Counted from the stretch's first letter, positions 18,249 to 43,790 are shown. The stretch: 64,000 bases of DNA from a virus (IMGVR_UViG_3300034062_005355); one strand, 5' to 3'. A program made the numbers and translations. The notes: generated by a model not told the origin, from the sequence alone.

Positions 18249-18905
18249 ATGGCAAAAAAAGTTATACGACTTACTGAACAAGAATTATCTAAAGTATTAA
18301 GCGATATTTTAAACATGACTGGAGCGTTTGGTGGAAAAGGAAAAAAAGATAATAAAAGTTCTGAACCAAAAAAATCTATAGGTAAAGTATCCGCAAAAGG
18401 TCAAGAACTTTTGAATAACCCAACCTTTAAAGAAAAATTAAAACAAATCTCAAGTGAGATTGGAATTAGTGAAAATTCAATTATTAAGTTAATGAAACAC
18501 GAATCAGGATTAGATTCTTCTGTCAAGAACAGTATTGGTTGTGTTGGTTTAATCCAATTTTGTCCTGACAACAAAGGGGGGTCGTCAAAAACCATCAACG
18601 GAAAAACATATAATTTAAGTGAGTTACAAGATGATTTAGAATTACAATTAGATGCAATTAAAGAGTTTTGGTCTAAAGGTAAACGTGATGGTAAAATTAA
18701 AAATGCCAAAGATTTATATGTTTATAATTTCTTCCCAATCGCAGCGGGAAAATCTGATGAGTATGTTCTACAAACTAAAGGATTATCTGCGGAAAAAATT
18801 GCAAGAGCAAATCCTATTTTTAATAAAACATTAGGTAGACCAATTAATACGCCTTTAACGGTTGGTGATTTAGGAGACTATTATCAAATGACGGGAATGG
18901 TTTAA
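18249..18905 (+). CDS. Lytic transglycosylase/lysozyme-like protein with IRLTE N-terminus
   Basis: LMKHESG catalytic Glu, GCVGLIQF motif. Confidence 0.75.
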   Translation: MAKKVIRLTEQELSKVLSDILNMTGAFGGKGKKDNKSSEPKKSIGKVSAKGQELLNNPTFKEKLKQISSEIGISENSIIKLMKHESGLDSSVKNSIGCVGLIQFCPDNKGGSSKTINGKTYNLSELQDDLELQLDAIKEFWSKGKRDGKIKNAKDLYVYNFFPIAAGKSDEYVLQTKGLSAEKIARANPIFNKTLGRPINTPLTVGDLGDYYQMTGMV

Positions 18906-23991: not shown

Positions 23992-24053
23992 AAAAATATT
24001 TGGTAGTTTAAAAAAAATGTCTTACATTTGTAACACAATAAACAACTACAAAT

Positions 24054-24308
24054 ATGTCAACAGAAAAATTAATCAGAGACAAAGACGGACGATACAATTA
24101 TTTGTTTAATTGGATTGGTGGTGGATTTAATGATGTTTGGGCATTTAATATAAAAGATGCTCGTGATATTGTTAAGAAACAACGTAAAGAATCTGAGGAA
24201 AAATATCCAACACATGTAAAGTTGGTTGCTGACCCAAAATCGTTCAGAAAGGCAACAAGAAAAATGTCTGAAGAACAGAATAGAATGGGTTGGATGATGA
24301 CAATGTAG
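24054..24308 (+). CDS. Hypothetical protein
   Basis: TACATTTG promoter 24023-24030. Confidence 0.75.
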   Translation: MSTEKLIRDKDGRYNYLFNWIGGGFNDVWAFNIKDARDIVKKQRKESEEKYPTHVKLVADPKSFRKATRKMSEEQNRMGWMMTM

Positions 24309-24418
24309 TTGTTAAATTTGGAGATTTATACTCATGACGACAGAATAATTAAATAAAGATAGGGGATATTTAATCCCCTTTTTTATTTCCGTATATTTAT
24401 AGGGGAATAAGAAACTTT

Positions 24419-27400
24419 ATGTCATTCTCAAGACCATTTACATATAATCCATCACCTAATCCACTAATTAATGGTACTGAACAAGTTGGTAGTTTAGCAG
24501 TTGGAACACCAACATCAGGATTTACAAATAATCCACAATTTTGGAACGGACCTGACGAAGCGTTGGGGTATGTTATTGCTTATCCTGTTTCAGGAGGAAC
24601 TCATCCAACACCAATTTCGGGTGTAACAGCATATCTTGGTTTTAAAGGAACCAAAAACATGACTAATCCATTAAGTGAATCAACATTTGTGGAATTGGTT
24701 AACAGTTCATTTAATCAAAGTTTCACAAATGGGGACGAGGCTTCATATTATTTATTGAGTGAAGGATATTGGACATCTTACCCCTACACACCACTTTTCT
24801 CAGTTCAATTTTTTGAGTCAGGTTCTGATGTAATATTATCTTATGAGGGTCGACTTAACTTAGATGGTTTAGATTTTGTTGAAAGTGGTTCTTTAGGATT
24901 CGGTGGTGGAGTAGTACCAAATGTTGGTGTATTTCTAAATCAAGACGTAAATGGTTTTTCAGCATACGGTGGAGCCACGTTTAATGTCCCAACCTCTTTT
25001 GGTTCAGGAGAGGGGGGTGTTTCAGATTTGGGTAGTGGTAATAGTTTTGGTGTGTTTAACCCGTACGGCAGTTATTTTCTTTTAGTTCCTACGGGATATA
25101 CATCGTTTGAAGATTATATCCAAGGGTCATTATTATTTACAGGACAAACACTTACAAGTTTGGGAATGAATACTGGCACATACAACTATAGTTGGGGGGG
25201 ATACTTGGGACAATCATTTGTTCTTACAATTGGAGGACCAGCTCCAACACCAACACCAACAGGGACAATTGCGGTTACACCAACTAATACACCAACACCA
25301 ACTAATACACCTACAGGAACTGCGGCTGAAACGCCAACTCCTACACCTACAGGTACACCTGCTGAAACACCAACAGGAACTGCGGCGGCAACTCAAACAC
25401 CATCAGTTACACCAACATTAACACAAACACCAACTCCAACTGATTTAAGTGCGATTACCACTTACACCATCTCAGGATGTAGTAGTTCAAATGTTATTGT
25501 CGCTGATTTAGGACCAGGAGCATTTTTCCCTGGTGATACATTCTATTTGGACTTTACAGGAGCGACTGCAACTGAATGTTACACAATTATCAATAAAATC
25601 AACGCAACACCTACAGATGGTGGTAACCCAATATCTTCCTATCCTAATTGTGCCGATTGTATTGACGGAACAACCACAACTTACACAATTTCAGGATGTA
25701 CTACTTTGAATGTATTAGTCGCTGATTTAGGACCAGGAGCATTCGGTGCTGGTGATATATTCAACATGACATTTACAGGAGCAACTCCAAGTGGATGTTA
25801 CAGAATTGTCAATAAGATTGTTGCTACCCCAACAGATACAGGAGCACCACTAACTTTCTATTTTAATTGTGATGATTGTGAGGCTTCATTGGTAACACCA
25901 ACACCTACGGCAACACCAACAAATACTGAAACTCCAACTGAGACTCCTACACCTACGGTAACAGAAACTCCAACAGGAACACCATCTGTAACAGAAACAC
26001 CAACTGAGACTCCTACACCGACAGTGACGGAAACTCCGACAGGAACACCAGCGGTAACACCAACAAATACGGAAACACCAACTGAGACTCCTACACCGAC
26101 AGTAACTGAAACACCAACTAATACTCCAACAGAGACGGAAACACCAACACCAACTCCGACAGGAACAATTGGAGCGACACCTACTGAAACGGAAACTCCT
26201 ACTCCAACACCAACTGAGACTCCAACAGGAACTCCATCGGTGACAGAAACACCAACTGAGACTCCAACAGGAACTCCTGAGGTAACACAAACAAATACTC
26301 CAACAAATACGGAAACACCAACTGAAACTCCTACACCAACTCCGACTGAAACTCCAACAGGAACACCATCGGTAACACCAACAAATACAACTACACCTAC
26401 TACAACACCTTCAGTATGTACTCCTACCGCAACGCAAAACGTGGCGGGTGTTGATGGATTAACAGGATTTTTCTTTGGTGGATTCCCAACACCACTTGGA
26501 ATAGTTCAAGTTGGATGGTATGCTAATGGACCTGGTGTTTTAGACGCATTGGTCACTAATATTGATAGTGTGAATCAAAATATTACTATAGCTCCAGGAA
26601 ACGGAGTATTTGTTTCTGGTAGTTTCTATACTTTCTGTAACGCACCTCAATTCCCTAATGTTACACCAACATCGACTCCAACTGAGACGGAAACTCCTAC
26701 TCCTACACCAACAAATACTGAGACTCCGACTAATACTCCAACTGAAACACCTACAAATACACCAACCAATACGCCTACTGAAACTCCAACACCTACTCCA
26801 ACTGAAACACCTACCGAGACTCCTACTGAAACTCCTACTGAAACTCCTACTGAAACTCCAACAAATACTCCAACTGAAACACCAACTGTAACCGAAACTC
26901 CAACAGGAACACCAACAGGAACACCAGAAGCAGAAACTCCTACTCCTACACCAACAAATACTGAGACTCCGACTAATACTCCAACTGAAACACCTACAAA
27001 TACACCAACCAATACGCCTACAGAAACTGAAACACCTACTCCAACTCCTACGAATACAGAAACTCCAACCAATACTCCAACTGAAACAGAAACTCCAACT
27101 GAAACACCAACTAATACTCCAACAGGAACACCAGAAGCAGAAACTCCTACTCCTACACCGACAGTAACTGAAACTCCAACTAATACTCCTACACCAACTG
27201 TAACAGAAACTCCAACAAATACGCCTACTAATACTACAACCACCACACCTTCAGTTACACCAACAAACAGTATTAATGGTAGTGCGTTGTTCAATGATAC
27301 TAATTTCCTTACTATAAGTGGAAACACAGGTACTGCTATGGGAATAGGTGATTTTACTTGGGAGTGTTGGGTTTATCCGACTAGTAGTTTAGGATTTCAA

Positions 27401-28828
27401 ACATTTATAGACACTAGAACAAATCCACTTAGTGGTGGTGATACTACAGGTTATTATTTTGGTACAAATAATAACACATTAACTCCTATGGTTTATACAA
27501 ATGGCATTCTTTTACAATCAACAAACAACATAACATTAAATGGATGGAATCACGTTGCGTTGACTAAAGTAAGCGGAACCTTAAATATTTGGATAAATGG
27601 TGTTAATAGTGGTAGTGTCTCAGATGCGTTTACAAATTTGACAAACCAAAGAATACTCATCGGAGGTGCCGCTGCCAACTCGGCAGCATTAACTTTAACA
27701 GGAAACCTTAGTAATATTCGTATTACAAAAGGAGTTGCGGTCTACACGGCAAACTTTACTAAACCAACAACTAACTTTACCGTAACTCAATCAGCAAATG
27801 TTAATGGTAATCCATCGGCAGCAATTACGTCAGGACAAACCCAAGTATTATTAAACACTAATTTTGGTGGTGGATTCTTAACAGATACTTCTACCAATAA
27901 CTTTACTGTAGTAAATAATAACGGAGTGACGAGTTCGACTTTTGAGCCATTTACTCCTATTCCATTCCCAACACCAACTCCAACTAATACTCCTACTAAC
28001 ACCGCAACTCCAACACCAACAACAACCGAGACTCCTACAGAAACTCCAACAAATACTCCTACACCGACAGTAACAGAAACTCCAACAAATACTCCTACAC
28101 CTACTAATACTGAAACACCAACTAATACTCCTACACCAACAAATACTGAAACTCCTACACCAACTATAACTGAAACACCAACTAATACTCCTACACCAAC
28201 TATAACTGAAACACCAACTAATACTCCTACACCAACTATAACTGAAACACCAACTAATACTCCTACACCAACTATAACTGAAACTCCAACAAATACTCCT
28301 ACACCAACTATAACTGAAACTCCTACTGAAACACCAACAAATACTCCAACACCAACAGTAACTCCTACATCGGGAGTAACAGGTGATTTTAATATAACCA
28401 TTTCACAAGTAACAGGCCCTAACGTTGTATGGTCAGGTTCGGGTTCATTTAATTTAAGTGGTTTAACATCTGGTGGAAGTCCAAGTGGTCTTGCAGTGTC
28501 TGAAGTATCAAACGGACTTTGGATAGTAGGACCAACAGGATCTATTAATTTTAATGCATACAATGGTGTGACAACATTCCCATCTAACTTTGGAACAGGA
28601 GGTACATTTTTCCCTGACTCAGGTTCAGGAAGTTTTGGTATAGTATCAAATGAAACAAACAGAACTTTATTAGTACCTACAGGATATGTCTCAGGTGACT
28701 TTATAATTGGTACTTCAACATATGAAGGTGAAACACTTATATCTATGGGATTAAGTGCAGGAGATATATTCACTTGGAGTTGGGGTTCAGGAGAAAATAC
28801 AAGTACAATAGTGATGAGTATCATATAA
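24419..28828 (+). CDS. Large Pro/Thr-repeat fibre/adhesin-like protein with LamG-like domain
   Basis: TPTxT tracts separating globular modules; [10 protein letters not shown]...WNHVALTK...NIWING LamG; duplicated Cys-rich and beta modules. Confidence 0.85.
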
Positions 28829-28859: not shown

Positions 28860-29114
28860 ATGAAAAAATTTTTTAGCAACTTATTTAACGACAATAACTC
28901 AATTAATGAAAAGGCGGTTATCGGATTTATGGCATTTACAATGATGTGCATGTTCGCAGTAGTTGACATCATAACAGGCGCAATGAATAAACCACTATTG
29001 ATTAATGAGTTTATTTTTGATTCATTTAAATTTATCACAATTGCTTGTTTTGGTATTGCATCCGTTGATAAGTTCATCAACCTGACAAAAGGTAAAAACG
29101 AAGACGAAGAGTAA
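28860..29114 (+). CDS. Two-TM membrane protein (possible holin)
   Basis: Two hydrophobic helices, charged C-terminus; TATTTAT 28833-28839. Confidence 0.6.
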   Translation: MKKFFSNLFNDNNSINEKAVIGFMAFTMMCMFAVVDIITGAMNKPLLINEFIFDSFKFITIACFGIASVDKFINLTKGKNEDEE

Positions 29115-33096: not shown

Positions 33097-33516
33097 TTAA
33101 GAGAAATGATGTTTTACTCTATCTAATAATTTTTCGTTGAACTTTATTCCGTGTCTATTTTTAAATTGTTTTAATAATGTTTTAATTGATTCGATTTTAC
33201 CTGATTTAGATAATAAAATATAAGCACCTAAGTCAGCGTCTATTTCATCATCCTCACTTCTTGGACCATCATGACCCATTATAATATGAGATATTTCATG
33301 TGCCTCAATAAATTTTAACACTTCGGCACCTAATCCATTTACTAACTGTTCTCCATCAATAAGAACCAAATTTTGACCTGGAATCATAAAACCATACCCA
33401 TACTCTTCAAAATAGTCTTTTAACTCCTCATATTGAGGATTTTCCTCAAATATTACAGCAATTTGTACACTTGGTAGGAATTCGCTATTGTATATTATTG
33501 GGTTTGATTCTTCCAT
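33097..33516 (-). CDS. HExxH zinc metallopeptidase-like protein
   Basis: AHEISHIIMGH...EIDAD. Confidence 0.7.
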   Translation of the reverse strand: MEESNPIIYNSEFLPSVQIAVIFEENPQYEELKDYFEEYGYGFMIPGQNLVLIDGEQLVNGLGAEVLKFIEAHEISHIIMGHDGPRSEDDEIDADLGAYILLSKSGKIESIKTLLKQFKNRHGIKFNEKLLDRVKHHFS

Positions 33517-34373
33517 TATGATAATAATTTATAATATTCGTTAAAATGTTTAATTCTGTCAGCCAAACCTATTGTGCCGCCATTAACTCTTTTAGTTACA
33601 GCAGTTACTGTTGCGTTATCAGATCCTCTATCACAAATTGCCCACAATTTATTGGAATCAAAGAAAAATGCGGCAGATGCTAAAGGATATTTGGTTGCGA
33701 CTAAATCAGGGTTGGAAACAGTATCTTCACCGATGAACCTCGCAAATCTACTGTAATTATCTTTACCAGTCAACTGTATAAAACCCCTACCTCTAAATTT
33801 AAAACCATCCCCTGTTGATTCGGGACCATTACCCATTCTACCACCATAAACTTTACTTGCGATTTTTTGTGGTTGACGTGCGTATGATTCTGCCAAATTA
33901 CCTGGAAAATATTTTCCAAAAATACTCTTAAGACCTGATGCGGAATAATTAACATTTTCGGTAACAGCTTTAAATCCACCTGATTCGTGACCACACTGTG
34001 CTAAAAAATGAGCCAATCTTAAATTATTTGTTATATTAAATTTTGATGCGGTTTCAGGTATTTGTAAAATAACTGAATCGGGTATATGACCTTTTAATTT
34101 ATCAATTTTTAACCCATTAACAGGTAAAATATTAGAGGTTGTTGGAGTTATGATTTTATCTTCTTTAATAATTTCATTACCAAACATTTTGTTCCAAGTT
34201 TCATCACCAACAATACCATCGGCACCTAATCCATTTTTGGATTGCCATTTTTTAACCGCAGCTGAAGTTCCAGGACCGAAGATACCATCAGGTTCTAAAC
34301 CTGCTTTTGTTAAACCCAACTTTGTTTGGAGTTTTTTTACGTCTTCTCCTTTAGACCCAATTTTTAGTAACAT
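33516..34373 (-). CDS. Modular endolysin: peptidoglycan-binding domain + GH19 catalytic domain
   Basis: DGIFGPGT/DGIVGDETW; HFLAQCGHESGGF, FRGRGFIQLTG, VTKRVNGGTIGL. Confidence 0.93.
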   Translation of the reverse strand: MLLKIGSKGEDVKKLQTKLGLTKAGLEPDGIFGPGTSAAVKKWQSKNGLGADGIVGDETWNKMFGNEIIKEDKIITPTTSNILPVNGLKIDKLKGHIPDSVILQIPETASKFNITNNLRLAHFLAQCGHESGGFKAVTENVNYSASGLKSIFGKYFPGNLAESYARQPQKIASKVYGGRMGNGPESTGDGFKFRGRGFIQLTGKDNYSRFARFIGEDTVSNPDLVATKYPLASAAFFFDSNKLWAICDRGSDNATVTAVTKRVNGGTIGLADRIKHFNEYYKLLS

Positions 34374-34447
34374 ATTTATTATTTTTTAAATAAATATATT
34401 TCAAGTATTGATTTTAAAGTATTTATCTATACCAAGATACTATTAAA

Positions 34448-34945
34448 ATGAAAAATTTATTCGTTTTGATGCTAATTATGCTATTATCATCATTTAATCA
34501 CCAAGACCCACCCAAAAAAGTTTTTATTCAATCAGTTAATAATAAGATTGAAGTTGGAACTTTGGCAAATAACAGAAATTTGTCCTTTGGGTTTAAAAAC
34601 ATTCTTTTAGAAAACTTACAAGAATTAAATTACGATGTTGTTTCGTCTGCAGAAGATGCTGATTACACCATCAAAGTTGAATTATTGTATTTTGACGTGT
34701 TGGAAACAAATTCCGGATTCTCAGTTTTTCACAAAAGTGAAAATGAAACTGTATTAAGAATTAGAGGTTATTTGTATAACAAAGACGGCAAAAAACTAAA
34801 AGAATTTGTTTCCGTTGGAAAATCATCTGAGATTTCCATGTCAACACTTATAATATCTGAAGGCGGAGGTATCAACCAGACCTCAGTTTCTAATGTTATA
34901 AAAAAGTCCTCTGAGACATTAATCCTTAATCTATTTAAAAAATGA
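34448..34945 (+). CDS. Exported CsgG/LptE-like alpha/beta protein
   Basis: Signal peptide; C-terminal pattern resembling 37732-38496; TATTTAT 34420-34426. Confidence 0.55.
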   Translation: MKNLFVLMLIMLLSSFNHQDPPKKVFIQSVNNKIEVGTLANNRNLSFGFKNILLENLQELNYDVVSSAEDADYTIKVELLYFDVLETNSGFSVFHKSENETVLRIRGYLYNKDGKKLKEFVSVGKSSEISMSTLIISEGGGINQTSVSNVIKKSSETLILNLFKK

Positions 34946-36843
34946 AAAAAATCATTTCGGTTATATCCATCTTACTATTAGGTATGGTTGGATATGCACA
35001 AACACCCGAAATAGGACATTTTGAACAACTAAAAACGGTAAGAAGAGGGGACACAATTGATGTTGCATGGTATTACAAACCAGCTTCAGGGGTTGATGTC
35101 AGAACTTTTCAAGTTGATTTTCAGTTTAAGAAAACCCTATTTACTCACATTTCTTCTAATGTTGATGCTGTTTACTCAAACAACTCACCAACATTAAATT
35201 ATCAGGAATGGAAAAATTACAAGTATGGTTCTTACTCGTCAGCAGCAGGAACATACAATTACACATCGGATACAAACTGGACGGTGGGTCGTAACTACTT
35301 AATCTTTGCGTTAGGTAGTTCATCTACATTCTCATCAAACGGTTATATTATCCATAACAAATTCATCATCAATGATGTTCAACCAAATTACGTATCAGAT
35401 TCAATTATTGTGAATTGGTCAAGAATGTTTAGAGTGAATGGAACCACGATAGGAGATAATGTTGCAACTCTATCACACCAAAAACAAGCAATTAAATTGT
35501 TGGGTAATTTAACAATTTCAGGTAAAGTTTGGTTTCCATCAACAATAACTGCGGGTCTACTTCCCACAATTTATTGTTATGAAAACAACACAGGTGTTTT
35601 AGTTTCACAAACAAAACCAACTATTAATGGTAATTACACTTTAATTAATATTGATGAAAAAACTAAATATAAAATTGAAGTTAGGTTTCCTCAAGATAGT
35701 TTAGAAAAAATGAGGGATTATGCTGTAACCATTTCAGATGCTATCAAGGCATATAATGAATATGTTAATACAGATGTTAATCAAAACTATGGTCGGGCTT
35801 ACTTAAAACATGGTTTAGGTTTATTGATTAGTGATATCAATTTAAACTCTAAATTTGATGGTGGAGATCCTTATGGGATTTACGCATCAGTTTCTGGTTT
35901 AAGACCAATTGACCCTTCAAAATTAATAAATGTATTTAGCAAAGGTGAATATGATTCTCTTGTATTAGGAGGTAACCAATGGGTTGATTGGACTGCTTAC
36001 TCTGACAGAGGAAAATTCATTTATGATAGTGTTGGAACAAATAATCTAACATTAGATGTTAAATATTTTATATTGGGTGACGTTGATAGAACACACTCAT
36101 CACCGGTATTTAACGGAACGAGTGAAGTATTTGCTGCGATTTACAAAGGACAATATAATGTTGAAATTCCAAACGCATATTCTGTTGGACAACCGATGTA
36201 TTTACCATTTAACATAAACACAAATGGTGATTATAACAATGGATTACAATTTGAAGTTAAGTATGATGTGAGTAAAGTTAATTTTGAAGAAATAATATCT
36301 AATTTACAAGGTCCGTGGTTACAATATGTTACACATGATAATGTGAATGGTATTGTTAGATTCGGAGCGATGAACAATCAAAAAAAAGGGTCACTACAAG
36401 GTGTAGTGACCCCTTTCAATCTTAAATTTTCAGCCAAAGTCTCAACAAACGACATAACAACTGATGTTGTCGTGAGAGAATTAATGGATGCTTCAGATAA
36501 AGAAGGAGACCATTTTAATATCGTGTTAAAATCACAAAGAGTTGTGATGATGTATAAAACACGAACAATAAATAACATAACAGAGCCAATCGTAAATCTT
36601 TACCCTAATCCAAATAATGGTGAATTTAAACTTGATTTTGAATTACCACCTAATACAAATGTGAATACATCTATTTATGATTATCAAGGTAAACTAATAA
36701 TAAATTTGGGAAATATTGAATCAGGTTTTAATACAGCAAAAACAACAAAATCAGTTGAAGAACCTCAATTACCTCAAGGAAACTATTTATTAGTGGTATC
36801 AGGAGACGATAAACAAATAAATAAACCTTTTATTAAATTCTAA
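34942..36843 (+). CDS. T9SS-sorted protein with cohesin-like and dockerin-like domains
   Basis: Signal peptide; SDINLNSKFDGGD Ca loop; GLQFEVKYD...GIVRFG cohesin-like; LYPNP...IYDYQGKLI...LPQGNYLL...KPFIKF T9SS CTD. Confidence 0.8.
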   Translation: MKKIISVISILLLGMVGYAQTPEIGHFEQLKTVRRGDTIDVAWYYKPASGVDVRTFQVDFQFKKTLFTHISSNVDAVYSNNSPTLNYQEWKNYKYGSYSSAAGTYNYTSDTNWTVGRNYLIFALGSSSTFSSNGYIIHNKFIINDVQPNYVSDSIIVNWSRMFRVNGTTIGDNVATLSHQKQAIKLLGNLTISGKVWFPSTITAGLLPTIYCYENNTGVLVSQTKPTINGNYTLINIDEKTKYKIEVRFPQDSLEKMRDYAVTISDAIKAYNEYVNTDVNQNYGRAYLKHGLGLLISDINLNSKFDGGDPYGIYASVSGLRPIDPSKLINVFSKGEYDSLVLGGNQWVDWTAYSDRGKFIYDSVGTNNLTLDVKYFILGDVDRTHSSPVFNGTSEVFAAIYKGQYNVEIPNAYSVGQPMYLPFNINTNGDYNNGLQFEVKYDVSKVNFEEIISNLQGPWLQYVTHDNVNGIVRFGAMNNQKKGSLQGVVTPFNLKFSAKVSTNDITTDVVVRELMDASDKEGDHFNIVLKSQRVVMMYKTRTINNITEPIVNLYPNPNNGEFKLDFELPPNTNVNTSIYDYQGKLIINLGNIESGFNTAKTTKSVEEPQLPQGNYLLVVSGDDKQINKPFIKF

Positions 36844-36849
36844 AAAAAA

Positions 36850-37176
36850 ATGTCAGAAGAACAAAACGTAGAGACAAATGACGGAACATGGTCAGGTCTT
36901 AAAAAAACAATTATTGCAACATTAACAACTGTTATTACCGGAGGTGGAGTATGGTTAAGTACTACTTTATTTAGTGGTCAAGAAGAACCACAAGTACAAC
37001 AACCAGTTCAACAAGTGGCACCCGTGATTAACATTAACAACACCCAGCAGCAACAATCTGGTGGTGAAAAAACAATCATCATAAAAGAAAAAGCGCCAGC
37101 GGCTGCACCTGCTAAAAAATCAGAAGAACCAGTTAAACCTAAAAAAGAATTCACAGAAGAAGAACCAAAATGGTAA
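36850..37176 (+). CDS. Single-TM protein with Gln/Pro-rich tail
   Basis: Composition; operonic. Confidence 0.75.
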   Translation: MSEEQNVETNDGTWSGLKKTIIATLTTVITGGGVWLSTTLFSGQEEPQVQQPVQQVAPVININNTQQQQSGGEKTIIIKEKAPAAAPAKKSEEPVKPKKEFTEEEPKW

Positions 37177-37742
37177 CTAATCAACAACCAACAGGATTTA
37201 AAGAACTTTTAAGTGCGATGATGAAACGAAGATGGTTTATCACCGCAATCGTACTTGGTGGTTTTATGATTATCATATTTGGCATTTTTTTGGCAATTAT
37301 GGGTAAAACCCCAATGTCCTCTGAATGGAAAGAGTTACTTCTTTTATTGTTAGGTGCATTTATTGGTTCTTATGGTAAAATCATTGACTATTGGTTCAGT
37401 GATACCGACAAAGATAAAATGCTAGTCCAGAAAATGGATGAGGAGGACGGTGTATCGTTATCAAATACTACAGACATACCAAACAACCCAATCGTTCCTA
37501 TGAGTATGGTACCATTAGTTTTACCAACAAGTGAGAAAGTTGAACAACCTGTCCAAGCTAAAGTAGGTGTTGAAATCGATGAAGATGGTGATGGTGTAAT
37601 GGATGGTTTAGATTTCGATGGTGATGGTAAAATTGATGAATATTTTTCACATAGAAATTGTCAGCATGTTTGGGGTGATTCAGATGGTGACGGTGATGAA
37701 GAATGTCTTATTTGTGGATTAATTAAACCAATTGAAGAATAA
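37170..37742 (+). CDS. Two-TM protein with DxDGDG Ca-binding repeats
   Basis: DEDGDG, DFDGDG, DSDGDG. Confidence 0.75.
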   Translation: MVTNQQPTGFKELLSAMMKRRWFITAIVLGGFMIIIFGIFLAIMGKTPMSSEWKELLLLLLGAFIGSYGKIIDYWFSDTDKDKMLVQKMDEEDGVSLSNTTDIPNNPIVPMSMVPLVLPTSEKVEQPVQAKVGVEIDEDGDGVMDGLDFDGDGKIDEYFSHRNCQHVWGDSDGDGDEECLICGLIKPIEE

Positions 37743-38496
37743 TATGAAAAAGTTTAAATTAAACAAAATGAAACAAAAAATATCGGTGTTTATAATATTT
37801 TTATTATGTATTTTAACACAAAATGCTGTTGCTCAAACCATAGGTAAAACAAAGACAGAATCTTATGTTGCGGAATTTGAAAAGAAAAGGGACATAAGTG
37901 ATTATATGAAATACGATGGTCCTCAAATACCAATCCAAATCCTTAAATGTGGTATATCTGAAGAAATGTATGAGATGTATCCAGAATTAAAAGAAAAAAG
38001 AGTTGGTTTGGGCGTTGCTAATATTTCAATGGAATATTTGGAAAACTTAAACAGATTTAAATTTACTGAAAGTCAAACAGAAATTAAGAATCGTATGGTT
38101 TTACAATATAAGGCATCTGCTGCAGGTATTTCCGAAAATAAATTAGATGGTCGAGGTAAAATCAATTTGGCAAAATATTTTGTAACGATTGAATGTTATG
38201 ATTATTCAATATCTGAAGACGAGACAATTAGTTTAAAAGACGGAATTAAAGATAATATGGTAACTCGTATTGGTTTACAAGTAAGATTTACCGATGCGGA
38301 GACTGGTTTAGTATTTGGCGGATCAGGATTAGGTGAGGCTAAGACAACAAGAGAACTTACTTTAATATCCGATGCAACCATCGATCCAATTAAATTCAAC
38401 CAATCAACAATATCAATCGCAACTAAAAAAGCATTAGATGTCGCAGTTGTTAACATTCTTGATAGAATGATTAAAAAACAAATATTCACCAACTAA
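37732..38496 (+). CDS. CsgG-like (curli-type secretion channel fold) protein
   Basis: Leader; LENLNRFKF; IGLQVRFTDAETG...GxGEA CsgG-type strand pattern. Confidence 0.65.
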   Translation: MKNNMKKFKLNKMKQKISVFIIFLLCILTQNAVAQTIGKTKTESYVAEFEKKRDISDYMKYDGPQIPIQILKCGISEEMYEMYPELKEKRVGLGVANISMEYLENLNRFKFTESQTEIKNRMVLQYKASAAGISENKLDGRGKINLAKYFVTIECYDYSISEDETISLKDGIKDNMVTRIGLQVRFTDAETGLVFGGSGLGEAKTTRELTLISDATIDPIKFNQSTISIATKKALDVAVVNILDRMIKKQIFTN

Positions 38497-38500
38497 TTAA

Positions 38501-39841
38501 ATGAAAAAGTTAAAACCAGTTTTTCTTTTATTATTTGTGTTATTCACAAGTTTAAAAACTATTGGTCAGTCATTAACTTACACATTTATTGACCCATGTA
38601 CCAAAGAAGTAACATATTTTAGTGTTCCAATTCAAAGTGGTGGAACAACAATATTCTTTTTGGGACAACAAAGATATTTCACCGCTGGAGATGTATCCAG
38701 CGGTGTCTTTGCCTCTTGGATAAGTCAAACATATACCGATTACCGAAAAATTTCACCATGCGGAGTACAACAAGTAAGGGTTACACAAAATCAAATTACA
38801 TCACAAATTATAGGTAATACTATTCAAAGCGTAGTCGGTAGTATTATGAGCCAAACAAAAATCGAATCAAATATATCAAAAGATGATAAAAATAATACTA
38901 ATGATGGTTCTACTACCCCTAACATTACTAGCAATAGTGATAGAACTAGCAATAATAATCAAGGAAATACGACTTCAAATACAGGATCGTCAAGTTCTAA
39001 AAATGAATCCAATGGTGGTAGTAATAATGGAACTAATAATAAAAATAACGGATCGGGTACATCAACAAATCAAGGAGATAAAAATACTGAAACTAAAAAA
39101 GAAGATAATGAAGTAGTTGGTGCGACAACAATGACCGTAGATGCCAATAACGATAAGGGTGGTAATGGAGGATCAAGTAAAAGTAATACAAGAAATAATC
39201 CCGTTATCGTTTCATCAGATCTAACAAGCGCACAAAATTTAGACAGAAGTTATACAGGTATCATAAATGTCGGAATGTCACAATCATCTATGACTGGAAC
39301 CTCAAGTTGGGGTGTTAATTCCATGATTTGGTTTAATCTTAATCAGTTTGCAATAACTGGTAGATACACAAAAATACAATATAATAAAACTCGTAAAATA
39401 AAATTGATTCACAATTTGAACTTAACAGGATTATATTCTTATGGAAATATATTAGGATTTGCGGGTTATAGTACAATATTAAATGCGGGTAAATTTGGTA
39501 TAACGGGAGTTAATGTTAGTGGTGCGATAACAAAAACACCTGAAGATGAAAATTTATTTATTAGTCCTTCGGCAACCGCGTTTTACACTAAACCATTTAG
39601 AGTTGGAAAAAAATTAGTCCTATCACCTGAATTGTATGTTATCTCAACTCCATTGATTTATTCATCTGTGGATAAAGTTACAGTATCAGATAGAACATTT
39701 AGTTCATTTATTGGAACAGGTGTTGATTACCAAATCTCAAGAAAATTTAAAGTAAATATTAATTACAAATTAAACATGAGTACCAATCCTGATTTTCCAG
39801 TTCTTTCGTTTTTCTTAATTGGATCAAAGATTAATTTATGA
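38501..39841 (+). CDS. Outer-membrane beta-barrel protein with N/S/G/T-rich stalk
   Basis: Signal peptide, low-complexity linker, alternating beta strands ending FLIGSKINL. Confidence 0.65.
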   Translation: MKKLKPVFLLLFVLFTSLKTIGQSLTYTFIDPCTKEVTYFSVPIQSGGTTIFFLGQQRYFTAGDVSSGVFASWISQTYTDYRKISPCGVQQVRVTQNQITSQIIGNTIQSVVGSIMSQTKIESNISKDDKNNTNDGSTTPNITSNSDRTSNNNQGNTTSNTGSSSSKNESNGGSNNGTNNKNNGSGTSTNQGDKNTETKKEDNEVVGATTMTVDANNDKGGNGGSSKSNTRNNPVIVSSDLTSAQNLDRSYTGIINVGMSQSSMTGTSSWGVNSMIWFNLNQFAITGRYTKIQYNKTRKIKLIHNLNLTGLYSYGNILGFAGYSTILNAGKFGITGVNVSGAITKTPEDENLFISPSATAFYTKPFRVGKKLVLSPELYVISTPLIYSSVDKVTVSDRTFSSFIGTGVDYQISRKFKVNINYKLNMSTNPDFPVLSFFLIGSKINL

Positions 39842-40947
39842 TGAGACATATAATTTTTATAATACTATTTTTAATTACGTTTTCATTAAGTGCTCAATCA
39901 CCCTTATGTACCAGTAGACCTACAACATTTTGTTGTGAGTATGTTTCAAGTGTTACTATAAACGGTAGAACATATAGTGGTAGTAATGGATTTGCGGCAT
40001 CCTCAGGTGGAAATCCTGCGGGTTATTATGATTATACAACAGGAACTGGTATTCCAACGATAACCGCAGGTCAAAATATTTCAATTTCATATACAGCGGT
40101 TACGAATGGTAATTATATGGAATATTTTAAATTATGGATAGATTTTAATGGTAATGGTAGTTTAACAGATCCGGGTGAGTTAGTTCATAGTAATAATGTT
40201 TCTTGGGTCGGAACAAGAACAATTAACGCAACATTTGTAGTTCCAACAACAGTATTTAACGGACAAGTGTATATGAGATTTATTATGCAATATTCAGGTT
40301 CACCTATTATATGTGGAACCTACCCTTATGGTAATACTTTTGACTTTAAGACTACAATTGCAGGTGCCCAACCAAATCCTAATCAACCAATACCAACAGA
40401 AACTATAAGTGGTAAAATCAGTATTCCAATAGGATTATCTGTAAGACCAAAAGTTATGTTGTATAAAGTAATTGGAACCTCGTTAAGTTTAATTGATAGT
40501 GTAATTGTTGATGTTAATGGTAATTACATTTTGAAACCTAATGAATATAATGTAACATATAGAGTAGTTCCATCTTATTCTGCTGTGTTGACCTCATCGG
40601 ATTTGGTTAATCTTTTAGATGAAGCAAAAAATGTTAGTGTCCCACCAAAATTATCACCAGGATTAATATTAAATACGGGTCCAAAAATGATGGCAGGAGA
40701 CATAAATAACGACGGCAAAGTGTATATTGATGACGGATATTTGTTGGCGAGAAATCTATCGGGAATGAACCCTATAAACACAGTATATTGGTTTACCGAC
40801 TCACAATACTCAACAATCACATTAAGTAATTTTAACATAATAACACCATCGTCACACTTTATTGTTAATTTTACAACATTTTCAGTTATATTAAACATAA
40901 AATATGTTGTTTTAGGTGATACTAACTTATCATCTTCTTCACAATAA
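39838..40947 (+). CDS. Exported GEVED-domain protein with dockerin-like domain
   Basis: EYVSSVTING, KLWIDFNGNG...GE, MRF, CGTYPYGNTFD; AGDINNDGKVYIDDG. Confidence 0.75.
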   Translation: MMRHIIFIILFLITFSLSAQSPLCTSRPTTFCCEYVSSVTINGRTYSGSNGFAASSGGNPAGYYDYTTGTGIPTITAGQNISISYTAVTNGNYMEYFKLWIDFNGNGSLTDPGELVHSNNVSWVGTRTINATFVVPTTVFNGQVYMRFIMQYSGSPIICGTYPYGNTFDFKTTIAGAQPNPNQPIPTETISGKISIPIGLSVRPKVMLYKVIGTSLSLIDSVIVDVNGNYILKPNEYNVTYRVVPSYSAVLTSSDLVNLLDEAKNVSVPPKLSPGLILNTGPKMMAGDINNDGKVYIDDGYLLARNLSGMNPINTVYWFTDSQYSTITLSNFNIITPSSHFIVNFTTFSVILNIKYVVLGDTNLSSSSQ

Positions 40948-40948
40948 G

Positions 40949-41140
40949 TTAATTCTCAACCTCAATACCAGTATTTGATATTGAAATCCAAATATCAAAT
41001 AGTAAAAATACCAAGTAAAACTCTATATCTGAAATTGAGTGTATTTCAGGGTAATTATATTCCTCGTATAACCAATATATTACCTTAAATGCGACTATTA
41101 TCCGTATTATAAGTAAAAAAAACCCTAGTAGTATTTTCAT
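40949..41140 (-). CDS. Small membrane protein
   Basis: Two hydrophobic segments; promoter 41145-41152. Confidence 0.7.
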   Translation of the reverse strand: MKILLGFFLLIIRIIVAFKVIYWLYEEYNYPEIHSISDIEFYLVFLLFDIWISISNTGIEVEN

Positions 41141-43367: not shown

Positions 43368-43790
43368 ATGAAAAAAATAACAACTATACTATTACTATTT
43401 TTAACTTTAACCTCAAGATCCCAACAGAAAGACATACTTTATATTCCACAACAAAATTCCTTGGTTGCGTCTCACAATTATAAACAAATTGGTTTATATT
43501 TTGGAGGATATTTTTTAACAACACTACCTCAACCTTATGTGTATACTACACCATTATCAATAATTAATCGTGTTGGATTGACATATGTTAATAAAGATAA
43601 CACATATAGTATAATGTGTGGCGCATTTTTACAATCATATTTTGATCATGTTGACATGACTCCCGATGTTTGGGTTAAAATTTATCCAATAAGAATGATA
43701 ACTAAAAATAAAAAAAGTTTAGATTTTTCACTTGGTGTGAATTATTCTGACGGTTTTAGGTACGGAGTTGGGTTATCAATTCCATATTGA
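43368..43790 (+). CDS. Exported, probable small outer-membrane beta-barrel
   Basis: Signal peptide; GVGLSIPY end; TATCTTTG 43356-43363. Confidence 0.65.
   Translation: MKKITTILLLFLTLTSRSQQKDILYIPQQNSLVASHNYKQIGLYFGGYFLTTLPQPYVYTTPLSIINRVGLTYVNKDNTYSIMCGAFLQSYFDHVDMTPDVWVKIYPIRMITKNKKSLDFSLGVNYSDGFRYGVGLSIPY

Follow-up and report, generated by a model that had tools for sequence, protein, structure and literature searches.

A conserved phage gene module encoding a CsgG-family protein together with cohesin and dockerin-like envelope proteins

A row of seven genes, here named g1 to g7, occupies positions 34448-40947 of a 64,000-nt virus DNA (IMGVR_UViG_3300034062_005355; the whole stretch is called the window below). 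Its most conserved member, g5, encodes a homologue of CsgG. We propose that the row is a conserved phage envelope module for Flavobacterium-like Bacteroidota hosts, which would plant glycan-binding proteins with cohesin and dockerin-like domains on the infected cell. This reading is the one we favour, but it is held tentatively and at somewhat less than an even chance.

The seven open reading frames (ORFs) are all on the + strand, all frames are intact, and they follow one another with overlaps of 4-11 nt or gaps of 4-6 nt; no terminator-like site was found on this strand inside the row. The G+C content of the module (0.31-0.32) is near that of most of the window, and the phage identity of the DNA is given by profile matches to an endolysin, a thymidylate synthase, a T4-type RNA ligase and a homing endonuclease. 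No tRNA genes were found in the window. By a hydrophobicity script, g1, g2, g5, g6 and g7 have a strong N-terminal hydrophobic core (11-mer Kyte-Doolittle 2.8-3.4) and g4 has one strong transmembrane segment, to which a second can be added by eye, while the segment of g3 is weak and falls below the 19-mer cut-off. All seven products are shown by these predicted segments to be targeted to the envelope, through an N-terminal signal or a membrane segment. The initial annotation had described a tightly coupled phage operon of envelope proteins, and its coordinates, spacing and N-terminal hydrophobic segments are confirmed, that of g3 being weak. In four of the signal peptides, a Gln directly follows the cleavage point predicted from the sequence; Gln at +1 is the 'Q-rule' of Bacteroidota signal peptidase I substrates. 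In addition, TATATTTG, a TAnnTTTG-type motif that matches the Bacteroidota promoter element, occurs 10 times in the regions upstream of the window ORFs, against 1.1 expected. The fit to the Q-rule, the enrichment of this motif and the type IX secretion system (T9SS) sorting domain of g2 described below together point to Bacteroidota as the host phylum. DNA near-identical to 34448-40947 is present in 20 lake or freshwater metagenome runs (2016, 2020, 2024), and because all of these are flagged as possible sources, they indicate a freshwater origin only. For RNA, no run with the operon or with g5 alone was listed, a result that has no bearing on expression.

The distribution of the module was followed through 38 related loci with full flanks, IMG/VR contigs, 185,579 species genomes and 50,697 GenBank phage records. 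All 38 loci contain g1, g3 and g5; g6 is present in 37, g4 in 36 and a g2-like gene in 33, with order and strand unchanged throughout, and g3 is always upstream of g4 and g5. A g7-like gene, also in the same order and strand, is found in 7 of the 38. Phages of 160 kb up to over 300 kb keep this order. The core of g1, g3, g4, g5 and g6 is syntenic at 36-38 of the 38 loci and, more widely, in hundreds of viral contigs. Sequence identity to the window copies is 73-89% for g5 and 52-80% for g4, about 40-55% for g1 and g3, about 32-45% in most loci (up to 58%) for the barrel of g6, and mostly about 21-35% for g2. The window holds a compact version of the module: of the 24 accessory families seen in the modules of relatives, a single one, that of a small protein with two transmembrane segments, is also encoded in the window, 5 kb away. 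Only FeoA and PspC were recognised among these accessory families.

The g5 family is almost entirely viral. It comprises about 6,300 clusters in a large protein collection, on contigs up to 268 kb, and is encoded by at least 554 IMG/VR contigs. Among the species genomes it was found on four contigs of metagenome-assembled genomes (MAGs) and in no isolate genome; one of the four contigs is 254 kb long and also carries g3, g4, g6 and a homologue of the endolysin gene that neighbours the module in the window. Among the GenBank phage records it was found only in the immuto phages of Flavobacterium sp. LMO8, the sole cultured carrier. The initial annotation had raised the possibility that the row is a host chromosomal surface-protein locus, recently captured and now decaying. 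Distant bacterial relatives of g5 do exist, for example beside a caspase-like gene, but this origin is contradicted by the viral distribution of the family, and with seven intact frames, a G+C content matching most of the phage and a gene order shared by phages of such different size, it is hardly credible.

The gene g5 (37732..38496) encodes a secreted protein of the CsgG/HfaB family, assigned by both fold and homology. The ORF has 254 aa; because the database copies have 250 aa, the true start is probably the ATG at 37744. The g5 sequence alone has no Pfam match at E 0.1. An exhaustive search with g5 gave 199 representative clusters, and among 33 aligned full-length relatives, Pfam CsgG (PF03783) is matched by 14 (best E 1.9e-17) and LpoB by six. 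Aligned with CsgG of E. coli MG1655 by hhalign, the g5 family reaches 96% probability (E 2e-9); the family profile run against the sequences of solved structures gave no CsgG match at E 1. The AlphaFold (AF2) model obtained from the 33-sequence alignment has a pLDDT of 84. In a Foldseek search of the PDB with this model, CsgG structures were the best matches (E ~1e-6), and the GNA1162 structure 4hrv was also among the matches. VIA likewise returned CsgG, at Z 12.9-11.9 and a root-mean-square deviation of 3.1-3.7 Å over 172-193 residues (top match: Z 12.9, 3.4 Å, 174 residues), with weaker matches to PelC (Z 9.6), LptE (Z 8.8) and PelBC (Z 8.3). The best Swiss-Prot model in AFDB is the N. meningitidis lipoprotein NMB1126/NMB1164 (E 4e-13), and among viral models a phage protein annotated as CsgG comes first. 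Judged by profile comparison and predicted structure, g5 is homologous to CsgG and has the CsgG fold; the likeness first suggested for the product of 37732-38496 is borne out by Foldseek and VIA as well as by the hhalign and Pfam profiles. As a different context for the family, a distant bacterial relative of g5 (28% identical, 245 aa) lies in a four-gene row (L090:2675-7051) together with genes for a caspase-like Peptidase_C14/CHAT protein and two unannotated proteins.

The constriction of the CsgG pore consists of Tyr51, Asn55 and Phe56 (PMC6957492). In the hhalign alignment, the invariant Tyr83-Pro84 of the g5 family, which forms a YP(E)L motif, is aligned with Tyr51-Pro of the pore-lining loop, but Asn55 is aligned with Lys and Phe56 with a gap. 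CsgG, a nonameric ring, builds its 36-strand barrel from two amphipathic transmembrane hairpins. The segments aligned to these hairpins have ~19 residues, as counted on the same alignment, against ~21 and ~26 in CsgG, and every one of the 33 family members has many D, E and K in them. Moreover, the signal of g5 ends ...NAVA/Q without a lipobox, that of the immuto orthologue has no Cys, and the phage clade carries plain signal peptides; in the consensus of more distant bacterial relatives, a Cys stands at the lipobox position. Because the hairpin segments are short and charged and there is no lipid anchor, g5 is more likely a soluble periplasmic ring or adaptor, like the CsgG pre-pore or PelC, than an outer-membrane channel. 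The initial annotation had pointed out that CsgG forms such a channel, and a type VIII-like secretion channel of this kind, exporting a fibre or an unfolded substrate encoded nearby, would suit CsgG being the top structural and profile match of g5, the invariant Tyr-Pro of the pore loop, and the richness of the g6 linker and the g3 tail in N, Q, S and G. It is nevertheless very unlikely, since the hairpin-aligned segments cannot face lipid, the phage clade has no lipobox, two of the constriction residues are not kept, and none of the seven products matches the CsgA, B, E or F families in Pfam or NCBIfam.

The first gene of the row, g1 (34448..34945), encodes a secreted small alpha/beta protein of 165 aa with a hydrophobic N-terminus. 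An hhalign comparison of the g1 and g5 families covers 29 columns, with 86% probability and E 5e-6; the C-terminal pattern, searched by BLASTP, gives E 0.095. Atlas features of g1 lead to the Lipoprotein_16/YajG, DUF4410 and LptE clusters, and there is a weak match to PRK11627 (E 0.0027). From these matches g1 is probably a short and distant relative of the CsgG/LptE/YajG superfold, which we regard as a lead. Thus, of the two proteins that were first thought to share a CsgG-type C-terminal pattern, g5 is CsgG-like and the resemblance of g1 to it holds in part.

Two inner-membrane proteins are encoded immediately upstream of g5. The product of g3 (36850..37176; 108 aa) is a probable single-pass protein with a tail rich in Q, P, K and E, and an alignment of 22 homologues has a conserved C-terminal motif, GDEFKEEAPKW. 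The product of g4 (37170..37742; 190 aa) has two transmembrane segments by eye and a C-terminal tail with DxDGDG repeats and a Cys/His cluster. It belongs to a phage-only family; in the alignment of this family (A4), the core is invariant and the motif SDTDKDKMLVQKMDEEDG is seen. Relatives keep the C-terminal HRxCxH...CxxCG cluster, while the DxDGDG repeats are replaced in three of them (L015, L017 and L067). The Cys/His cluster, together with the positive charges before the first transmembrane segment, suggests that the tail is cytoplasmic. Accordingly, the description of g3 and g4 as inner-membrane proteins, with DxDGDG calcium loops in one of them, stands for the membrane segments and for the presence of the repeats, but the repeats are not kept in all relatives and are read here as facing the cytoplasm.

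Downstream of g5, g6 (38501..39841; 446 aa) encodes a protein with a signal peptide, an N-domain (residues ~23-120), an S/N/G/T-rich linker (~120-230) and a C-terminal beta-barrel (~231-446). In the family alignment (A2), the N-domain has two invariant Cys, the linker is hypervariable, and the C-terminal part of ~215 residues is conserved. The AF2 model is of low confidence, with pLDDT 43 overall and 50-66 in the barrel, where ~12-14 long strands are seen (residues 235-443). In a wide VIA search, all 50 best chains were outer-membrane barrels (Z 10.6-13.7); Foldseek against the PDB gave none below E 1e-3 (best 3e-3: PcoB, NanC, FapF, TamA), a Pfam scan of 16 family members found no family, and the Atlas shape search returned only the viral family of g6 itself and generic barrels below TM 0.5. 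At the level of fold class, the low-confidence model and the VIA result support a C-terminal outer-membrane beta-barrel in g6, in line with the stalked barrel of the first description. FapF-like and autotransporter-like readings of the layout of domain, linker and barrel are no more than leads.

The second gene, g2 (34942..36843), encodes a protein of 633 aa with a signal peptide, an N-terminal cohesin-like region, a beta-sandwich, a dockerin-like region (~254-399), a cohesin (~400-548) and a T9SS type-A C-terminal domain (CTD; 553-628). The sorting domain matches Por_Secre_tail over residues 553-628 (E 6.5e-9, 36.4 bits against a cut-off of 27) and TIGR04183 over residues 553-632 (E 1.7e-8, 34.3 bits against a cut-off of 23). 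On these profile matches, g2 carries a true T9SS type-A sorting domain in addition to a Sec-type hydrophobic N-terminus. Residues 421-622 are 30% identical (E 3e-12) to a 243-aa immuto protein, which in turn matches Pfam Cohesin (PF00963; E 5.9e-9) and Por_Secre_tail. The profile of g2 relatives (A5) finds solved cohesins as its best matches, though weakly (E 0.02-0.03), and direct Pfam scans of g2 segments and of the g7 C-terminus gave no Cohesin and no Dockerin match. By transitive homology through the immuto protein, g2 contains a cohesin. In most g2 relatives (A5), the protein terminates directly behind the cohesin with ...GYNNF, and a sorting domain is absent. Because of this, use of the T9SS is not general to the module, and T9SS routing is, as far as these alignments go, special to the lineage of the window. 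It had been suggested that the phage uses host secretion; this stands for g2 of the window and does not extend to most of its relatives. The ...KLTGYNNF end is conserved in most cohesin proteins (L084, L077, L065, L080 and others), and the immuto lectin protein ends ...GYNN; the shared ...GYNN(F) may be a C-terminal signal or contact motif.

At 45 related loci, a family of lipoproteins of ~115-125 aa (for example L058:4029-4394) is encoded between the cohesin gene and g3, and it has no separate copy in the window. Their beta-sandwich bears a faint likeness to a T9SS sorting domain, and the lipobox Cys is soon followed by Lys and Asp/Glu. We take the latter to resemble the surface-export signal of Bacteroidota lipoproteins. 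The idea of a fusion linking this family to the g2 sorting domain is not established, as hhalign of the two gives E 0.012 but a probability of 3.7%.

The last gene, g7 (39838..40947; 369 aa), is a variable accessory gene, whose product has a signal peptide, a GEVED domain, a beta-sandwich and a dockerin-like region (246-369). The GEVED domain (PF20009) is matched at residues 96-171 with E 8.7e-12 (46.1 bits against a cut-off of 24.4). The dockerin-like regions of g2 and g7 share one canonical calcium loop-helix (consensus ADVDGNGIFNEADTYKLLQHLTG), a beta-rich insert and a terminal GDVN-type motif, and their profile (A6) finds solved dockerins through one loop plus helix at E 7e-4 (3ul4_B), with others at 0.009-0.1. 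With these matches, the two composite proteins of the initial annotation, one with cohesin and dockerin-like segments and a T9SS CTD, the other with GEVED and a dockerin-like segment, are recovered much as they had been described. That the dockerin-like and cohesin parts work together is argued mainly from the way in which they are split and fused differently between phages. In immuto, there are separate proteins with lectin and dockerin-like parts, with cohesin-like and dockerin-like parts, and with cohesin and CTD. In jumbo relatives, lectin, dockerin-like part and cohesin are fused, and the window fuses all but GEVED into g2. From this arrangement we infer cohesin-dockerin pairing in the module. 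A complex prediction for g2 398-548 and g7 246-369, entered as alignments, scored 0.00, which is neither for nor against binding. The heads also differ, being C-type lectins in immuto and the jumbo relatives and GEVED in the window, and both kinds probably bind glycans.

If these parts are put together, the envelope module that we favour would work as follows. Soluble periplasmic rings of g5, of the kind formed by CsgG pre-pores or PelC, would sit with the small related g1 under or beside the outer-membrane barrel of g6, and g3 and g4 would tether the assembly to the inner membrane. The assembly would anchor or export a variable set of cohesin/dockerin proteins, whose heads are probably glycan-binding (GEVED here, C-type lectins in relatives). 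In the window phage, the cohesin protein g2 would reach the cell surface by the host T9SS, and g7 would dock on g2. The net result would be an infected cell with a remodelled surface that binds glycans, for adhesion or aggregation, or for the masking of surface glycans. A surface remodelling of this sort fits the matrix-anchoring role reported for bacterial CsgG/HfaB clusters (see below). Given the genetic link to the endolysin described below, the module may act late in infection or together with lysis. Several points weigh against this reading. Display at the surface is indicated by sequence for this lineage only, as most g2 relatives have no sorting domain, and g7 has no recognised route across the outer membrane. 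The classical Dockerin (PF00404) consists of two tandem loop-helix repeats of ~22 residues, whereas the g2/g7 region has one canonical repeat and no Dockerin match in the Pfam scans. In addition, g4 was not found in immuto, the low-confidence model fixes neither the family nor the orientation of the g6 barrel, and the repeated linkage to the endolysin gene fits a role in lysis at least as well. A stronger form of the proposal is a largely self-contained, virus-encoded machine for outer-membrane export and anchoring, in which a lipid-free CsgG/HfaB-type ring of g5, with g1, would lie under the g6 barrel in a PelBC-like manner, tethered by g3/g4 and co-regulated with the endolysin, and would lay a modular cohesin-dockerin lectin coat on infected Flavobacteriia. 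We consider this form unlikely; if it is true, phages would possess a new kind of 'surface conversion' apparatus that is abundant in lakes.

The contrast between a conserved core and fast-evolving surface parts could also reflect superinfection exclusion or receptor masking, in which the module would cover surface glycans or jam T9SS- or gliding-associated receptors, and so block other phages or keep progeny from sticking to debris. The identity of g2 to its relatives (about 22-35%), the hypervariable g6 linker and the exchange of GEVED and lectin heads are what would be expected of parts exposed to other phages or to variation of the host surface. Exclusion proteins of the envelope are encoded by T4-type phages (Imm, Sp). 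For neighbouring genes of pelagimyophages, coinfection avoidance was suggested by the authors (PMC7029224). However, six or more genes are many for such a role, and Pfam, PHROG and NCBIfam scans gave no homology to recognised exclusion proteins, so that we rate exclusion or masking as distinctly unlikely.

The most serious competitor of the envelope module is a lysis module. The endolysin gene of the window (33516..34373, - strand; PG_binding_1 and Glyco_hydro_19/GH19; phrog_181, E 1e-67) is the divergent neighbour of g1, as had been noted at the outset. Seventeen related loci have a homologue of it next to the module or within it, and five arrangements occur: the homologue may be divergent or co-directional ahead of g1, stand between g2 and g3 (9-14 nt before g3), follow g3, or separate g4 from g5. 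Of the 38 full-flank loci, 29 have no such homologue within 10 kb. The linkage is real but partial. In a lysis module, g3/g4 would be holin- or antiholin-like, and g1, g5 and g6 would replace the spanin, breaking the outer membrane or timing its breakdown after the endolysin has acted. By eye, no hydrophobic segment is present in the three ORFs that follow the endolysin on the same strand, and no holin or spanin family of PHROG, Pfam or NCBIfam is matched by g1-g7, nearby ORFs, small membrane ORFs or the accessory families of relatives. The classical spanin pair that was first reported missing thus has no family match here either, and the module of the window contains no lipobox protein, hence no lipoprotein o-spanin. 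The latter tells against lysis as well, and there is no obvious use in lysis for the lectin, GEVED, cohesin and sorting domains. Since spanins and holins usually evolve fast, it would be unusual for one of them to be as conserved as g5, which keeps 73-89% identity from phage to phage beside diverging neighbours. Immuto does without g4, and the protein with two transmembrane segments encoded at 28860-29111, whose relatives lie between g4 and g5, is a simpler holin candidate. A similar proposal has been made for the CsgGF genes of phage Melnitz (PMC9004378). Taken together, a lysis role is on the unlikely side but carries real weight.

The 84-aa product of the ORF at 28860-29111 (+ strand) combines two hydrophobic segments with a charged C-terminus. 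In shape it is holin-like, but it matches no family; it is 53% identical to its copy in L062. Directly downstream of g7, on the opposite strand, an ORF of 63 aa (40949-41140, - strand) also has two hydrophobic segments and no PHROG match. The ORF directly downstream of the endolysin (33097-33516, - strand) has an HExxH-type motif with weak matches to Peptidase_M48 and the metalloprotease family phrog_87, and from this its product may be a protease partner of the endolysin.

Full-text literature searches found no description of the present module, and in the immuto record the products carry no annotation beyond lectin, cohesin and hypothetical protein. The closest published counterparts are the curli-like CsgG/CsgF clusters of pelagimyophages (HTVC008M group) and of the Methylophilales phage Melnitz (PMC7029224, PMC9004378). 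Both they and the present module involve a large aquatic myophage with a CsgG-family gene in a small cluster of envelope genes, no amyloid subunit and a host counterpart that is missing or not identified, and a link to a wall hydrolase and lysis has been proposed. However, no CsgF match was found here in Pfam or NCBIfam, g5 lacks the lipid anchor and membrane hairpins, and the present module adds a beta-barrel protein, two inner-membrane proteins and the cohesin/dockerin proteins. The hosts also differ, being SAR11 or OM43 there and Bacteroidota with T9SS here.

Among bacteria, the CsgG/HfaB cluster D1G37_12595-12605 of A. baumannii is needed for the poly-N-acetylglucosamine (PNAG) matrix and for pili and was proposed to anchor polysaccharide, and HfaB of Caulobacter is described in the same work as critical for holdfast anchoring (bioRxiv 10.1101/2021.05.19.444899). 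This three-gene type of cluster, to which NMB1124-1126 of N. meningitidis (including GNA1162) also belongs, resembles the phage module in pairing a CsgG-like protein with a smaller partner of the related LptE/TolB_N-type fold. Unlike the bacterial proteins, which are lipoproteins, those of the phage carry plain signal peptides; neither DUF4810 nor DUF799 is matched by the phage module in Pfam or NCBIfam, and it has many extra parts. In the Pel exporter, PelC forms a ring of small proteins of the same superfold under the outer-membrane beta-barrel of PelB. Here, however, the match is weaker than that to CsgG, PelC is a lipoprotein, similarity between g6 and PelB is undetectable, and no polysaccharide synthesis genes are in the module. 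The split and fused layout of g2, g7 and their relatives resembles the anchoring scaffoldin and dockerin-bearing subunits of cohesin-dockerin systems, and g2 shares its sorting domain with T9SS type-A cargo; the phage-encoded set differs in having a single canonical calcium loop and no enzyme cargo. Holin-endolysin-spanin cassettes likewise have small membrane proteins and outer-membrane-directed proteins encoded beside an endolysin, but the module has no family match to them, no lipoprotein with a short periplasmic domain, and far more genes and domains than known cassettes.

The present analysis contributes the case against a channel from the hairpins and the lipobox, the lineage-specific T9SS domain, the variable embedding of the endolysin gene, and immuto as the sole cultured carrier. 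CsgG-family genes of phages have hitherto been an unexplained curiosity of marine pelagimyophages, and a different and larger envelope module now turns out to be very common in freshwater phages. As immuto grows on Flavobacterium sp. LMO8, the module is directly testable. Knowledge of its function would reveal by what means large phages rebuild the envelope of Bacteroidota and whether they exploit T9SS and cohesin-dockerin assembly, and it might explain the role of the poorly understood three-gene clusters of bacterial CsgG/HfaB.

A recurring motif with the core AAGTATTTAT lies at 34417..34431 on the + strand, 17 nt before the start of g1. Variants of AAGTATTTAT are found 15-40 nt before the ORF starts at 18249, 21255, 29174, 34448, 43805 and 56073, and TATTTAT occurs 19 times in upstream regions against 3.7 expected; with three mismatches allowed, the total count of the 15-mer in the window is not above chance. 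As a sequence pattern, the motif at 34417-34431 is possibly a phage promoter element. It had been called late-type, and while its recurrence upstream of other genes holds, nothing marks it as a late promoter.

Elsewhere in the window, the region 24001-28828 has a G+C content of 0.38-0.41, against ~0.30 in other parts, and a strongly negative GC skew at 26-28 kb. A 1469-aa ORF at 24419-28828 matches phrog_15511, which has no assigned function. Finally, the ORF at 43368-43790 (+ strand) encodes 140 aa with a signal peptide, a beta-rich sequence and Tyr as the last residue, and has no Pfam or PHROG match. Its product resembles a small outer-membrane barrel, and the phage may thus encode more envelope proteins outside the operon.

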